A stretch of 64,000 nt of DNA from Psilocybe cubensis (Eukaryota): positions 2,170,001 through 2,234,000 of the forward strand of contig CM038998.1 in NCBI GenBank assembly GCA_017499595.2, in the 5' to 3' direction. This document shows positions 12,673-19,844 of the stretch, piece by piece. Both the position numbers and the translations under genes were made by a program. The notes beneath the pieces were generated by a model. That model made no database searches. It was not told the DNA's origin and saw only the letters and a program-made list of their open reading frames with translations. Positions within the stretch are counted from its first letter, which is position 1. Each line of letters begins with the position of its first letter.

Positions 12673-14371
12673 ATGAAATTTCTGCTTCTTCCTTCCACGA
12701 GCTTGGTGCGGATTAACGGTCGGACATGGTGTCTGAGAGGATGTGGTGGACGGTTGGGGCAACGAATGATGAGTGGGATGTACGAGAAGTATGCAGAGGC
12801 AATGGCAAAACGTAAACCTGTGGAAGGGACGAATGGGGAGCGGGTGGCGCTGTCGTTTCCTGCGCTGGGACTGGACGACAGGTTTGTGAAAGCACTGCAG
12901 AGGGCGTTCCCAGAAGTGGAAAAACCGACTGCTGTACAAGAGAAGGTTATCCCAGAGATACTGGGTGGGAAGGATATCCTGCTGAAGGATTTGACGGGGT
13001 CTGGAAAGTAAGTTTGTGATTACAAGACAAGACAAATTTGTTGAACAGGACAGGTCGTTTGGACTAGTGCTCGGACTACTGAATAAACCTCGTATGATTA
13101 TACACGACGAGAAGGGGGGCAGAAAGAGAGTTATTACGACACTGTTCATTGTGCCGCATCGAGATCTTGCTCTGCAGCTGCTACGGTGGATCGAACGGGT
13201 AACGGATGCGTTGCGGCCGTCGCCGCCGCTTCGGTCGATTGCACAAGTGCTGGTGCGGGTCGGAGGGGGAACGCGTGGGCTAGAAGAGCTGAAGGAGACT
13301 GCGCCACACATCCTGATCTGCACGCCACAGGCGCTAATGGATGTATATGAGCGTGAGCGGGAAGCGCTACGACTGGAGACTGTGAGGACGGTGGTGGTGG
13401 ACGAGGTGGACTGCCTGATTGAGAGTGATCCGCGGAAGGTGCAGAAGCACGCGGGAGCGACACGGACGATTCTGGATGTGATATACGCGAAGCGACTGAG
13501 GGCCGCGACGCAGCATGAGGAGGAGGACGAGGACGAGGATGGCGAAATTGACGGCGCGCCGGATGACCTGCCGCAGCTGATCATGACGAGCGCGACGCTT
13601 ACTGTGCGGTTCCGCGACTACCTGCTCAGAGAATGCCACTGGCTGAACCGGGGGAATCTTGTCAAAGTGCGCGGTGACGGCGAGGGCGACGAGGCGGGGC
13701 GGGTGCTGCACTCGCTGCTGGTAGTGCGCCCGGATGGGACGGTGGTGAACGCGGAGGGCGCACGCGAGCCGCCACCAAGAGCCGCACGCGAAACACTCGC
13801 CGTCGAAGATGAGCGTCAAGACCCAGATGACCACGAAAGTAAGTCTGACTCCTGCCCTGACCGCCGCGTAGAATACGCCCGCACGCAGTCGCCGTTTAAC
13901 CCGCACGCAGTCGAGGCGATCGCAACCGCATTTGCGCTGGACGTGCCGCAGATAGCGCTGGTGGTGGTGGGGTCGAGCGCGCCGGTGCAGCGGATGGTGT
14001 ACGAGCTGCGGCAGCTGGGGGTGAATGCGGAGGCGCTGGATCTGCTCGTAGAACGGCGGGGGCGGGCGTACCTGGCGCAGGCGGGCAGCGGCGTGGAGGG
14101 TGTCGCGCGGAATCCGCGGCTCCTGGTGGCGACGGCGGCGACGGTGCGGGGGTTGGACATGCCGCAGCTGAGCCATGTGTTCCTGCTCGGCGTGCCCGAG
14201 GGCCGGGCGGTGGAGGGCTACCGGCACATCGCAGGACGGGTCGGGCGGTTCGGGCGGGGGGGTCGGGTGGTGAGCGTGGTGGCAGAGGGGGAGGACGGGC
14301 GGATGAGCCGGGTGATTAACGGGGTCGGAGAGACCCCCGTGGTATTCGAGCATTTCGATTATTATTATTAA
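12673..14371 (+). CDS. DExD-box (DEVD) ATP-dependent RNA helicase with a basic N-terminus, possibly mitochondrial
   Basis: Q motif (FPALGL...KPTAVQ), Walker A TGSGKS across intron 13008-13053, motif Ia PHRDLALQ, DEVD, SAT, VRGLD and motif VI HIAGRVGRFG. Confidence 0.85.
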
Positions 14372-14453
14372 TATTAATCGTCATGCGGCAGTGGCTGACC
14401 GTCTCCTTCTCTGCGAGCCATTTCTACCGGCGCGTCGTCTTTGGCTGACGGTC

Positions 14454-17215
14454 ATGTTCCTCCTCTTCTTTTTCCTCTCTCTCCTCCCCTTCCCTCTCCT
14501 CCTCGCCCAGTCCTCCTCCTCCTCCTCCTCCTCACAATCTCTCTCTTTCTCCCTCTCCACCGGCGATGTCACCCTCACCATCCCCACCACCCGTCCTGGT
14601 CAGCAGCCCTCTGTCTTTACCACCGTCCTCCCCGGCGTATTCAATGTCACCTACACTATAACCCCTACAACCACATCCACACCCACACCCACCACATCTC
14701 CCACCACCTCTTCTTCGCCCTCACCTACTCCAGATCCTTTCGTTCTTGCATGTCCTTTCTCTTTCTCTCTTCTTTTTTGTCTCCCTAATCTCTTTGCTCT
14801 TCAGGATACACGCGTTGATCCCGCTTTTGCCGTTCTTGGTGTCATTCTTATTCTTACTGGCCTCCCTTCCGCTTTCTGGGGCCACAAAAACAGATGGTTC
14901 GTCTCCTTCTATTCTCTTCCTCCTCATCCTCACCCTTCTTATCGTCTTTCACAGGACCTCTTTTTTCCTCATCGGCTTCTATACCCTATCTCTTGTTTGT
15001 ATAGTTCTTATTCTAAAATTCGGCGTAATTCCTGCCATAAATCCCCCAACTCAAACTCTCAGAGGCATGTTCGTTCTGGCTTCCTCCATCGCTGGCATCG
15101 CCGGTGGCGCAGTCGCCATCTTCTTCTGGAAGGGTGCCAGGTATGGTATTGGAGCCTGGGGTGGCTTCGCTCTAGGTCTGTGGATCCAGTGTTTCCATAA
15201 CGGGGGTGTCATCAAATCGGTCGGTTTCAGGTGGATTCTTTACATTGGTTTGATATTTTTGTATTCCATCCTTTCTATTTCAACCTAATCACAACTTCAC
15301 CAGGATGTGCTGTTGCCGGTTTTGCTCTATCTACCATCCCAAAGGTATTATTCCTTTTGCTTTCCACCTCCTCTACCTTAGCTTATTCTCGCCACCCATC
15401 AGATCCATTACCATGTACTTCTCATCTCCACGGCATTCGTTGGCGCTACTTCCTTCATGCTCGGTGTCGACTGTTTTACTACCGCTGGCTTGAAGGAGGT
15501 AATCAATGCGTTTTTCCCATCCAACACCATCATCTGACCATTTCAATCCGCAGTTTTACGTCTGGAACCTAGGCTTTCCTGCCCTCTTTCCAAAGTTTAC
15601 TGAAAACCATATCCAATTCCCTGTCTCCCAAACTATGCAGATCGAACTCGGCCTCATCGGTGCCGTCTCCTTGATGGGCATAGCCGTTCAACTCCGCATC
15701 CTAAAGGTTCTTCAGAAGAAGATGCAGGAAATTGCCGAGGAGACTCAGAAACGAGACGAGGAGGCTGAACTCCGCGCTGCAGATAGGCTCGCAACTGTCG
15801 ACCAGGAGCGTGACGCTTGGGAAAAGGACCATCCTACCCTTACAAAGCATGGCCGACAGGACAGTACCATGTCCTCTCTTCCGCTGATGAAAGAGCGGGA
15901 GGATTCGGCTTCCCCCATTCCAGATCCCCGCTCCTCTTATCTCCTCGATGAGCCCCGCCCCCGCCATGCATCAGGTCTATCCGACTTCAAAGTTGCACCT
16001 ACTCCGGAAGATGACCTTAGGCGTGCTGCCCGTAACAGCAACCAGCCCGTTGGTTCCATGCTTCCCAACTTGGACCTCGGCACCCGCATTCAGGAAGACG
16101 TGCCGTCTAGTTTTATTGCCGACGACGTCATGGCTCGCCCAGTGCAGGTGTCAGCCTCTGAACTGGAGGACTTCAAGCGGAAACAAGAACTTTTGGCAGA
16201 GATTCAAACCATACGTCGGTCAATTGATATCTTAAAGTCGGAAACACCCATACCGTCCTCTTCGGAAGCATCCCGACGCCCATCTTTCGCGTCCAAGCGC
16301 ACCCTTAGTCTTGACGCTACTAATGTCCTCCAGCAGCAACCATCATCGCACGCGAGACCACCGCGCGAGGCTGCCCCTCCTCGAGCCCGCGTGCATTCCA
16401 TGGAACTTTCTTCTTTAGTAAACTCACCCAATGACCCGATCACTAGACCGACCAGCGTACCCCTCAAAGACTCTGACTGGGATTCGTATATACAGGAACG
16501 TAAACTATTACAGCCACCGGCTGGCATCACCCCTCCGATCGTGACCAATAGAGTACCCATGGCCCCAGCAGTGCAAGAAGCACTTCAGCGCCGGAAGAGG
16601 AGGGAGAGTGCTCTCGGTGTCGCCGCACCTAGCACTGATTCATCGGAAGATGTTCCCCTGGCGCGAGTGATACAACAGAAGCCTAGCAATCAGCTGGGAC
16701 CGGTGACCATCCTGCCGCCTCGGCGAGCATCGGCCAACATCATATCCCCCGTTCCCCAGTTGGCAGCCAACACGCGGACCAGAACGTTTGAAGAATTGAC
16801 CGAACGCCATCGCGAAAAACTCCGGGACATGCAGGCGCCATTGACCCAAGCCGAGAGGGAGCACGCCGAACTGGAGGCTGCCCGACAACGATGGGACCGG
16901 TCAAAAGCGCTTGAAAAGGAAGCGGTCACTCGACGACAGGCAGAAAAAGTGGCTGCATTGGAAAAGAGGAAGAAAATGGAAGGAGGAGGAGGAGAGCATT
17001 CACGACGATCGTCTGGGGAAGCGGGTCGGCGACACTCGCGATCATTGAGCGCAGACAAGCTGGGGAACCAAGGAGGGACATCGTCTCGACGGCTGTCAGC
17101 GATGAAAGTAGAAGACTGGCAGCGGTATCAGCAGGATGCCGAAATGGGCGTCAAAACTGAGCGTGGAGGAGTGCCATTCCCGCAGGAGACGCGGCGGAAA
17201 AGCAGAGATGCATAA
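14454..17215 (+). CDS. DUF4203 (TM7S3/TM198-like) multi-pass membrane protein with a long disordered/coiled-coil cytoplasmic tail
   Basis: Signal peptide and S/T-rich stalk, then DTRVDPAFAVLGVILILTGLPSAFWGHKNRW-TSFFLIGFY, GAWGGFALGLWI, STAFVGATSFMLGVDCFTTAGLKEF. The tail is ORF 15506-17215. Confidence 0.8.
14511..14533 (+). repeat. (TCC)n microsatellite encoding poly-Ser, within a pyrimidine-rich tract
   Basis: tcctcctcctcctcctcctcctc seen directly; translates to the S-run after the signal peptide. Confidence 0.85.
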
Positions 17216-17348
17216 TAATGACGGACACAGCTACGAAATTATGACTATACGCACTTTTTTGGACATGGACTATGGTACATAGCACGCTACATACACATTG
17301 CATTGGAATGATTTGTTTTTTGGGAGATCAGGTGATGGAGAGTGACAG

Positions 17349-17435
17349 CGTGAGAAGATGTGACTGTTGTTTGTGGGACAAAACTCTCACGACGGAGGGA
17401 GTTTAAGAAATTCCCACCCACGTCTTGCTCTCACG
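17349..17435. promoter_or_regulatory. Cluster of CSL-binding-type elements (GTG[A/G]GAA and near matches) upstream of the CSL gene
   Basis: CGTGAGAA 17349-56 (+), TGTGGGAC 17372-79 (+), CTCTCACG 17384-91 (-), TTCCCAC 17411-17 (-), CTCTCACG 17428-35 (-). Confidence 0.55.
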
Positions 17436-17447
17436 CCCTGTAAGTAA

Positions 17448-19844
17448 ATGGCGCAGACGACGGCTGTTCAAGATCCTTTCTTTCTTGACCACCACCTACA
17501 CATGGCCCAAGTGCCCAACAATAACCCACAGTCGGAATCCCACCACAGAGAAGATACCCCTGCACAGGCAATTCCGTTTTCTCCCTCTGCAATTTTCCCC
17601 ATACTTTATCTCTAATCCATACCGTGTCTCGACACGCTCTTATATAGGTCCAATCTGAGCCTTTGCGCAACTCGCATACACCTCCCTCATCCCACTCGTC
17701 GCCCCATCTACAGACCGCAGATCCAAATGTCTCTTTGCAGTCTATTTTGACTGCCAACAAGGATGCCGCCAATGCACCCCCGCAACAGTGGCCGCAACAT
17801 CCCCAGGCCCATTCTCTCGTCCAGGCAGGTCCCTGTCCTATTTCTGGCAGTTGTGCAGAGCAAATAACCTTTTTCTAAAGGCCTCTTCGAGCAAGCGCAA
17901 GCTGGAGGATGCAGAGCCTGAAGATCCACACAGCAAGATTCGTCGTATCGTGCGCGACCATGTATCTCAAGATCCTGCACGCGTCATGCCAATGACCACC
18001 GTCATATGTTTACATGCCGCCGTCGCACAAAAGTCGTACGGGAGCGAGAAGCGGTTTCTTTGTCCACCCCCAGTCGTGCACATTGAAGGTCCCGTTTGGC
18101 ACATGCGTACCCAGCAGCTCGCCATGGCTGTCGTGTCGGAGAGTGGAGAGCGCTCGTTTGAGCAAAAGGCCCCCTTGGATAACAACATGACCGCGAGCTT
18201 CAAGTTTTTGCACGTTACGGGGACTGCAAAGGCAAAGAGTTTTCAGCTCTCTCTTGACATTGCCGAACCACCTCCACCCGCCCTTGTTCCAGAAGGCGCA
18301 GACACTCCCAGTGGTCGAGTCTGGGCTTCGTTTGATTCGGCGCCTGTTACAATCATATCAAAGCCCTCTAAAAAGACTGCAAAGACGCGTAACATTTCGT
18401 CGTGTATTCTGGCAGGCGGTCCTGTTTCTCTCTTCAACCGAATTAATTCACAAACTGTGCGTACAAAGTACATGACTATTGATGGTGGTCAGCTCTGCGC
18501 AAGCAACGTATCCTGGTCGGCCTTTAATGTCAATGTCGTTCGAAAACCAGGCATGACTGTAACCGCCTCCTCGGTTGGTACGTGTCATGTGATGAGAAGT
18601 GATAGGGTCTTTTTTCTAACCTTTTCTTTTCAAAAATAGTTGCAGGTCCACAGCCAGTAACGTACGGGTGTGAAATTGTTTTGTCTGATACACACTCCGG
18701 TATCTCTACCTCGCCGCTTGTGATCCGCAAAGTCGACAAGGGCAAGGTTACCCACGAAGAAGGAGGCCCCGTCAGTCAGATGCAAAAGATTGCTCTTCAG
18801 CGGGTCAATCCCGACGGCTCCCGACATTATCTCTCTGCAGCCGGTCCAATACCCGGAACACCTGGGGTGGTTGCCCCTCCGGCACCGGGGATGTCTTCCC
18901 AGGCCGGCACACATCCTCTCCTATTCCAATCTCCTCGTGTACGTGAAGAAGTAAAGGACGGTTATCGAGTCGTCTGCGATGAAGTCGATGATTATCTATG
19001 TTGGACCATTGTTGGTATCTGTATGCATCTCACTCATAATCATCTATATCACTTTGCTCATTATTTACCTTTTTTTTTTGTTGTTTTAGCAAAGTTCCAG
19101 TATACCTTCTTTGATGCCTTTGGTCAGAACAACACTATACCTGAGGTACCCATCACTCCTTTTCCAACGTTGTTCACCGCTCCAGCCTACCGTCCTGCAA
19201 ACAACACTATCGAGTTGACTGTCTCCAATTTCTTTTACGAACATCCTACCACACGACATCAGACCCCCCTCGATGTTTATCTAGGAAACCTTGGGCCTCT
19301 CCATCTTCGTGTCTACCAGGCAGCACCACCAGGCCCCCTTACTGCCATAAACTCTTATATTCCTGGTGGATCTGGAGAAGGACGGGACTCTACAGCCGCG
19401 TCGAATCCGCCAGGGCGATACATGAGTGCTCCATTGCACACTGTGGTCATTGTTGAAATGCCTCCGCTAGCTGATGTCATTAAAGCATTGGAAGACGACG
19501 CCTTGCCAACGAATACTTCTCCACCCAACGGCAATAAATCACATCCACCTCCTGACGGAGTTGAGGGATCAGTGCCGCCTCCACCTCCAATGCCATCTAT
19601 TGCAGGGAGGAGTCTCCCGCTACTGTTTATCCGCGCATCAGATGGCGTTGGGTATCATTCTGGCCGTACGATAGCATGCGAAAATGTGTTCCAGGCCATG
19701 GATCTCGGAAACATGGCGGCTAGCCACCAGCAACAGCAAAATGGACAACCTGTTGATACCAATTGGATAGCCGCTGCCGCTGCCCAAGCAGCAGCTGTTG
19801 CGGCAGATGGTGGAATGCATGGGTGGACATTGAGAGTGATGTAA
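17448..19844 (+). CDS. Fungal CSL (CBF1/RBP-Jk/Su(H)/LAG-1) transcription factor with LAG1 DNA-binding and beta-trefoil domains, Cbf11-like
   Basis: CLHAAVAQKSYGSEKRFLCPPP, IISKPSKKT, VSLFNRINSQTVRTKY, PVTYGCEIVL, PLVIRKVDKG, PVSQMQKIALQ, WTIVGI, PLLFIRASDGVGY. ATG 17448 joins the main frame through phase-0 introns 17568-17647 and 17825-17880. Confidence 0.92.

Follow-up and report, generated by a model that had tools for sequence, protein, structure and literature searches.

A conserved cluster of CSL-type sites over the core promoter of a class F1 CSL gene in mushrooms: a candidate self-regulatory element in Notch-free fungi

Introduction

The sequence-paired sites (SPS) of Notch signaling are head-to-head pairs of CSL sites at a fixed spacing, and in Caenorhabditis elegans the CSL gene lag-1 is reportedly under positive autoregulation.

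In Drosophila, the ASE5 element, which lies downstream of Su(H), carries five Su(H) sites; the site is YGTGDGAA, with A, G or T accepted at D (PMC3390367). Experiments on fungal CSL proteins are almost confined to fission yeast. There, Cbf11 represents class F1, defined by a shorter paralogue with a shorter N-terminus and no long insertion in the beta-trefoil domain (BTD) (PMC3155561), and Cbf12 represents class F2. The Cbf11 element is CGTG(G/A)GAA (PMC11658701), to which Cbf11 binds strongly and full-length Cbf12 very weakly (PMC3598750). Cbf11 binds DNA, tethers Mga2, and needs Mga2 to activate (PMC11658701), and the fungal CSL action reported is activation (PMC3598750, PMC11658701). The two paralogues are antagonistic and share targets (bioRxiv 2023.08.22.554308, PMC4569565), including 71 ChIP targets in common (PMC4569565). 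Cbf12 also occupies the cbf12 promoter and increases cbf12 expression (PMC3516552); neither promoter binding nor expression was lowered in a DNA-binding mutant, and the mechanism was termed unclear (bioRxiv 2023.08.22.554308).

For mushrooms, cbf11 appears in a list of genes differentially expressed in primordia of Pleurotus eryngii (PMC8700867). The literature searched (most subscription papers lay outside it) yielded neither an account of F1 autoregulation nor a description of CSL sites in mushrooms, and no mushroom CSL target or function. The available parts of PMC10282164 and its preprint contained no relevant mention, those of the PMC4569565 supplements contained no match for two gene ids, and the accessible portions of the work on the Cbf11-Mga2 regulon did not describe Cbf11 at the cbf11 promoter.

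Results

The CSL gene and its paralogue

The window (the whole 64-kb stretch of Psilocybe cubensis DNA analyzed here) contains a CSL gene, the structure of which was taken from spliced contigs of two runs (X1 and X2; presumed RNA, one study):

17448-17567, plus strand: CSL exon 1, with Met1 (17448), a conserved leader and an in-frame Met19 (17502); from spliced contigs
17568-17647, plus strand: intron 1, GC-AG, 80 nt; joint in contigs of runs X1 and X2
17648-17824, plus strand: CSL exon 2, low-complexity N-terminal tail; from spliced contigs
17825-17880, plus strand: intron 2, GC-AG, 56 nt; contig joint
17881-18577, plus strand: CSL exon 3, LAG1 DNA-binding domain (PF09271, E=7.8e-27) and start of the beta-trefoil
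18578-18639, plus strand: intron 3; contig joint
18640-19020, plus strand: CSL exon 4, beta-trefoil domain (PF09270, E=2.4e-9)
19021-19089, plus strand: intron 4; contig joint
19090-19844, plus strand: CSL exon 5 to the stop; from spliced contigs

The encoded protein has 709 aa, with 147 residues preceding VAQKSYG. Over the main exon it is 100% identical to a protein named transcription factor cbf11 of Psilocybe cubensis, its exon-1 N-terminus matches named Agrocybe, Pholiota and Psilocybe cyanescens proteins, and the Psilocybe cyanescens orthologue matches Su(H) 5e24 (E=1.6e-35). Exon 3 encodes the motifs VAQKSYGSEKRF, SKPSKK and NRINSQT, and the contact segments include the arginine of mouse R218 / Cbf11 R318; the change of this residue in Cbf11 abolishes DNA binding (PMC3598750). 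Among the best 80 of 165 relatives, VAQKSYGxEKRF, SKPSKK and NRINSQT are intact in 43/43 aligned proteins, and NRINSQT occurs in 78/80 loci. By its domains and DNA-contact segments, the gene product is predicted to be a CSL transcription factor.

A second CSL gene of the genome, at G000:C2, has LAG1-DNAbind and BTD domains and belongs to class F2: approximately 350 residues precede the same motif, the BTD carries a long insertion, and the DNA-contact segments are intact. The window gene, which is shorter and without the long BTD insertion, is assigned from its sequence to class F1 (Cbf11-type), also on the strength of a Cbf11-like motif: NRINSQTVR is the Cbf11 mutagenesis primer given in PMC3598750, read in frame by eye. 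Comparison of short, unequal-length segments with the PDB did not separate F1 from F2.

A GC donor at the first intron position recurs in L006, L037, L017, L065 and L052. The public model P0001 (632 aa) has an N-terminus that differs from that of the contig-based protein, and it is probably mis-spliced because of the two consecutive 5' GC-AG introns. A pair of in-frame methionines separated by 15-20 residues is shared by the different orders, with leaders of the type MAQ..DPFFLDHHLHM in Agaricales and MRT..HLQM in Boletales, Russulales and Polyporales proteins; such paired methionines could possibly give rise to two isoforms.

Five sites before the start codon

The spacer between the stop of the upstream gene (17215) and the CSL ATG (17448) measures 232 nt, exactly the length given in an earlier note on this DNA, and it holds the five sites reported there, each at its place and orientation (two on the plus strand, then three on the minus strand). 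The features of this region are:

15503-17215, plus strand: last long frame of the upstream TM7S3/TM198-like membrane protein gene (gene 14316-17215)
17342-17364, no strand assigned: two GTGAC words around site 1, both invariant in 10/10 close sequences
17349-17356, plus strand: CSL site 1, CGTGAGAA, perfect (motif scan of the window, as for the sites below)
17372-17379, plus strand: CSL site 2, TGTGGGAC, base-7 variant
17384-17391, minus strand: CSL site 3, plus-strand letters CTCTCACG, i.e., CGTGAGAG
17400-17409, plus strand: AT-rich, loosely TATA-like word between sites 3 and 4 (sequence only)
17411-17418, minus strand: CSL site 4, GGTGGGAA, with the perfect core TTCCCAC at 17411-17417
17428-17435, minus strand: CSL site 5, plus-strand letters CTCTCACG, i.e., CGTGAGAG; 13 nt before the ATG

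The cluster spans 13-99 nt upstream of the ATG. All five sites are perfect GTG(A/G)GA hexamers, base 7 is the sole mismatch of the three near sites (2, 3, and 5) to the 7-mer core, and sites 4 and 5 form a tandem pair 17 bp apart. The GTGAC pair around site 1 may represent co-factor sites, and the AT-rich word is a weak candidate for a TATA-like element.

Perfect 7-mer cores are somewhat more frequent in the window (22 in 64 kb, or 1 per 2.9 kb) than the value of approximately 1 per 4 kb from which the earlier note argued that the clustering was improbable. That argument stands for the five hexamers together, as at least three hexamers per 87 nt occur solely in the CSL-promoter cluster (59 hexamers in the 64-kb window); it does not stand for the two perfect cores alone, which are not unique because a second pair (41559/41614) also lies within 87 nt. 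Across the 46.6-Mb genome, same-strand hexamer triples number 92, compared with 97 in the control, many of them in simple repeats. A stricter triple, YGTGRGAR in the order plus, minus, minus, has the CSL promoter as its sole genome match (1 match, control 1), and this triple was chosen post hoc. The window alone makes chance an unlikely source of the cluster, and the strongest evidence against it is conservation among orthologues.

Conservation across mushrooms

Orthologues were sampled by a metagenome scan, of which the best 80 of 165 relatives were used; with the window, these form 41 clusters at 93% exon identity and, at 86%, 23 non-window lineages (L047, with no upstream DNA, was left out). 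The 150-nt promoter test covers 21 lineages, as L024 and L025 were cut short and left out. Start codons were initially placed at the ATG following the cluster; the final calls rest on N-terminal signatures, and many of the resulting termini match named proteins. By their best matches, the lineages from the best 80 of 165 relatives fall in several Agaricales families, Boletales, Russulales, an Athelia-like group and one unplaced, and none of these best matches is from Polyporales.

In this sample (best 80 of 165 relatives), at least three sites occur within -150..-1 in 19/21 lineages, vs. 1/1123 other 150-nt windows of the same loci. The conservation that the earlier note proposed to look for is therefore present, and such clusters, whose commonness in unrelated promoters it named as a refuting case, are rare in those windows. 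Altogether, the 21 promoters contain 77 sites, compared with 4.7 +/- 2.3 in 300 dinucleotide shuffles (maximum 13), and an unbiased count returned GTGGGA as the most widespread 6-mer (21/21) and GTGGGAA as the top 7-mer (19/21; all from the best 80 of 165 relatives). When measured from a fixed protein anchor, with no ATG call, at least two sites lie within 150 nt in 66/66 loci and at least three in 62/66, these being the loci with enough upstream DNA among the best 80 of 165 relatives.

These counts bear directly on the possibility of a chance cluster, or of a by-product of a pyrimidine-rich 5' region. The genome-wide triples, which do not exceed their control, speak for it, but the shuffle comparison and the anchor count refute it, and the reversed word appears only 3 times in 23 promoters (best 80 of 165 relatives); we regard its probability as close to negligible. 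The conservation, across at least four orders and far beyond chance, indicates that the cluster has been kept by selection.

The individual sites differ in constancy. Among 10 close sequences, TTCCCACCC at site 4 and CTCTCACG at site 5 are invariant (10/10 each), and site 1 reads GTGAGAA, GTGGGAA or GTGTGAA, its remaining bases being invariant. Site 3 retains the hexamer in 5/9 close orthologues, with an ATGAGAG variant in 2, and site 2 is the least conserved (hexamer in L006 and L008, inverted in L010, missing in 6/9 close orthologues). In distant orders there are 2-6 sites, which differ in number and spacing (best 80 of 165 relatives). A GCGGGAA near-site occurs before the ATG in 6/23 lineages (best 80 of 165 relatives), and in distant lineages (L046, L038, L014 and L071) an inverted repeat, GGGGACCCC..GGGGTCC, closely precedes the AT-rich word.

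Synteny between the TM7S3/TM198-like gene and the F1 CSL gene holds in 19/20 testable lineages (best 80 of 165 relatives). We rejected the cluster as a 3' element of this upstream gene: the distance varies from 147 to 2585 nt, and the cluster stays at the CSL ATG.

Match of the sites to CSL preference

Beyond the hexamer, the flanking bases of the 83 promoter sites (best 80 of 165 relatives) resemble those of known CSL elements. A C precedes the core in 47/83 sites vs. 21/172 elsewhere (5' C/T in 63/83), with a purine at base 7 in 71/83 (A 37, G 34) vs. 111/172 elsewhere. Two types recur, CGTGAGAG (20 times) and xGTGGGAA (31 times), and 67 sites are on the minus strand and 16 on the plus strand (best 80 of 165 relatives). 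The changes at site 1 among the 10 close sequences are confined to the A/G/T position of YGTGDGAA. The consensus YGTG(A/G)GA(A/G) thus appears to fit the CSL response element, with base 7 relaxed. We consider it highly probable that a CSL protein binds the cluster, and probable, with less assurance, that the predicted binder includes the gene's own product.

The recurrent pair is head-to-tail, 17-19 bp from start to start (18/72 minus-minus pairs, best 80 of 165 relatives), a recurrence that is in part due to common ancestry. For head-to-head pairs, the orders share no fixed spacing, and plus-minus spacings scatter between 12 and 122 nt (best 80 of 165 relatives).

Promoter position and transcript cover

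Among the best 80 of 165 relatives, 79/83 sites lie within -100..-1 and 0 in the first 100 nt past the ATG, and in 23/23 lineages 13-46 nt separate the last site from the ATG. The spliced CSL contig of run X2 starts at 17418 and so includes site 5, and the contig of the upstream gene ends at 17321, 28 nt short of site 1. As contigs cannot fix the transcription start, the uncovered stretch 17322-17417 was not counted as evidence. A GTAAGT at 17440 was rejected as a 5'-UTR intron donor, both contigs reading straight through it. Canonical TATAWA is found within -175..-25 in 4/20 orthologues (best 80 of 165 relatives), vs. 58/1167 background windows, and it lies upstream of the cluster in each of the four. 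The cluster therefore seems to overlie the core promoter and leader; the earlier note's CSL feedback enhancer holds up as a conserved candidate self-regulatory cluster and fails as a distant enhancer, since the cluster fills the 100 nt before the ATG. Because of that position, and with site 5 inside the spliced contig, repression is suggested as much as activation.

RNA hairpin potential

The mirror arrangement of the sites could also reflect a 5' RNA hairpin or a DNA cruciform, in which the sites would be paired stems. The stretch 17346-17438 folds at -38.7 kcal/mol (z -4.99), and 0/292 GC-matched windows fold as well; because of this strong fold, conservation of the RNA structure was tested. 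Across the 10 close sequences, 81% of cells pair, and there are 5 double changes vs. 1.6 in shuffles (0/500 as high), although the helix that contains 4/5 of these is gappy and 58% paired, and a slid control reaches a covariation score close to that of the structure (0.044 vs. 0.047). The RNAalifold covariation term is unfavorable (+0.55; double change in 1/20 pairs), z is below -2 in 5/22 orthologues, all sites are on one strand in 7/23 lineages (both from the best 80 of 165 relatives), and Rfam gave no match for the cluster stretch. A conserved RNA hairpin is thus poorly supported by these sequences and largely refuted as the general cause, with a mixed signal in the narrow clade; as an explanation of the arrangement, we consider it very improbable.

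Other candidate targets and repeats in the genome

A Cbf11-type lipid regulon is not evident: no cluster was found at the ACC1, FAS or desaturase promoters checked. ACC1 (L119:3699) has one perfect core approximately 220 nt upstream, and the promoters of FAS (L120) and one desaturase (L124) have no CSL core close to the ATG and contain CACGTG boxes. These starts were judged by eye (ACC1, FAS, and 2/6 desaturase-family matches, the second desaturase start being uncertain). The Mga2 homologue of this genome (L160:5674, G000:C2), which has SPT23_MGA2_DBD, TIG and ankyrin domains, carries a perfect core, TGTGAGAA, approximately 65 nt before its likely ATG, antisense like most CSL-gene sites.

Genome-wide, CGTGRGAR is not enriched (3640 vs. 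5327 in the control). Tandem perfect pairs at 16-18 bp make up 19/67 distinct pairs (approximately 8 expected), or approximately 13/61 with one repeat family collapsed, which is a weak indication of a genome-wide excess. Among the triple-site places (30 of 92 covered as loci, and 12 chosen places with wider flanks), none emerged as a shared target. Non-repeat triples lie at G000:C5:3031635-3031675, C8:1945819-1945862 (near an NADH:flavin oxidoreductase gene), and C13:1222771-1222824 (where a frame begins whose motif resembles a zinc cluster, with no Pfam confirmation), and these three places are candidate targets by their sequence.

A dispersed, LTR-like repeat family of approximately 760 nt starts with TGAT, and its longer copies end near TATCA. 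Copies are at G000:C13:455053-455819, C11:1090813-1091578, C9:496628-497410 and C4:3926206-3927043, with further copies at G000 C1:3722661, C12:2405721, C10:105750, C3:43569 and C9:874228 (family labels L139, L141-L146, and L154-L157); they are 67-84% identical, and no target-site duplication was seen at them. Perfect YGTGGGAA sites occur near +45-63 and +235-270, frequently paired at a distance of 18 bp. In copies that were picked by the pair, identity in the site columns is 350/370, vs. 63-93% elsewhere; at least one perfect site is also retained by 4/4 copies recovered through similarity alone. The family is possibly a mobile element read by the host CSL protein.

Discussion

We take the cluster to be a genuine cis-element under selection. 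That CSL reads it is very probable, and that the reader is the product of this gene is probable. As to what it does, the reading that we tentatively prefer, with somewhat less than even confidence, is negative autoregulation by the F1 CSL protein via its core promoter. The protein would fill sites at or downstream of the presumed transcription start, within approximately 100 nt of the ATG; filled sites would block initiation, such that the CSL level is held steady; and several sites of graded strength would allow a graded or cooperative response. Factors bound over a core promoter generally hinder initiation and would be expected to do so here, and it is for this reason, together with the inability of Cbf11 to activate without Mga2, that negative autoregulation is our first choice. 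Counted against it are the known CSL loops (cbf12, Su(H) ASE), which are positive, the presence of TATAWA in 4/20 orthologues (best 80 of 165 relatives), and an F2 paralogue with intact contact segments; the lack of a cluster at Cbf11-type lipid promoters and the fold of the window stretch (z about -5) also count against this preferred explanation.

In the opposite sense, the F1 CSL protein on the cluster could recruit membrane-released Mga2 and amplify its own gene, with Mga2 release prompted by fatty-acid shortage or low oxygen; CSL without Mga2 would be neutral or repressive, giving a Notch-like switch. The dependence of Cbf11 on Mga2 for activation (PMC11658701), the positive loops of cbf12 (PMC3516552) and Su(H) (PMC3390367), and the activation of a reporter by three sites upstream of a minimal promoter (PMC3598750) agree with this, as do the Mga2 homologue and the perfect core before its ATG. 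However, a single site so placed is expected in approximately 5% of cases by chance (22 cores in 64 kb), the lipid-gene promoters checked have no clusters, and the cluster, whose last site stands 13-46 nt from the ATG in 23/23 lineages (best 80 of 165 relatives), covers the expected start region, so that positive feedback is on balance unlikely, though a serious contender. The product of the second CSL gene, of class F2, could be the binder instead, controlling the F1 gene as part of an F1/F2 antagonism such as that of Cbf11 and Cbf12, and the two recurring site types among the 83 (20 and 31, best 80 of 165 relatives) could suit two binders. Cross-regulation alone is nonetheless doubtful, given the very weak binding of the element by full-length Cbf12 (PMC3598750), the invariance of the F1 contact residues, and the absence of GTG(A/G)GA from the 2.5 kb upstream of F2 (near-matches only GCGAGAA and GTGGGGAA), so that F2 lacks a reciprocal cluster. 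More improbable still is that a similar word is read by some unrelated factor that binds DNA or RNA: the bias of 67/83 sites to the minus strand, giving TCYCAC on the sense strand, would suit it, and the further invariant blocks (GTGAC twice, AAAA) suggest that other factors act at this promoter, but 16/83 sites are on the plus strand (both counts from the best 80 of 165 relatives), one flips between close relatives, as expected of a double-strand binder, and the word, the 5' C, the A/G/T tolerance and the location in front of a CSL gene all match CSL.

A more speculative elaboration, which we think rather improbable, is that the Agaricomycete F1 CSL protein on its own start region acts as a rheostat that also chooses the start site, and so between a long form (Met1, with the conserved 15-20-residue leader) and a short form (in-frame Met2), with the head-to-tail 17-19 bp paired-site grammar as the fungal counterpart of Notch paired sites, used also in the LTR-like repeat family of the same genome.

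The loop in a Notch-less fungus suggested by the earlier note has a precedent in cbf12 (PMC3516552), and none was found for class F1 or for mushrooms in the literature searched. What is new here is the class (F1) and the Notch-free core-promoter cluster, CSL autoregulation without Notch being already reported for cbf12. The surprise is further limited because autoregulation is common, being found in 14% of fission-yeast factors (bioRxiv 2024.08.20.607873). The footprint suggests YGTGRGAR, with base 7 relaxed, as the likely basidiomycete CSL word and provides a first candidate for a direct target, and the 100-nt promoter offers a test bed for F1/F2 cross-regulation and for Notch-free CSL repression in Coprinopsis, Pleurotus or Schizophyllum.

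Among the known systems, the locus resembles the Cbf11-Mga2 lipid regulon of S. pombe (PMC4569565, PMC11658701) in class, in the element CGTG(G/A)GAA and in the Mga2 homologue, and differs from it in that the mushroom lipid promoters checked carry no cluster. With SPS it shares CSL pairs at a recurring spacing, although the mushroom pair is head-to-tail at 17-19 bp. A conserved cluster of own-family sites in cis is a feature that it appears to have in common with the ASE5 and cbf12 autoregulatory modules. Like Su(H) ASE5, it has five conserved CSL sites in cis to a CSL gene with the words of other factors alongside; ASE5, however, is a 0.4-kb Notch-activated enhancer downstream of its gene, whereas the mushroom cluster occupies approximately 100 nt at the 5' end, with no Notch. 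The likeness to S. pombe cbf12 is that of a Notch-less fungal CSL protein on its own promoter, but cbf12 is class F2, and the mushroom gene is class F1, with a conserved canonical-site cluster over the core promoter that is known from sequence. C. elegans lag-1 is likewise a CSL gene under its own product, and differs in needing LIN-12/Notch. If the start-site rheostat were true, then, together with Su(H), lag-1 and cbf12, it would suggest that CSL self-regulation is older than Notch.
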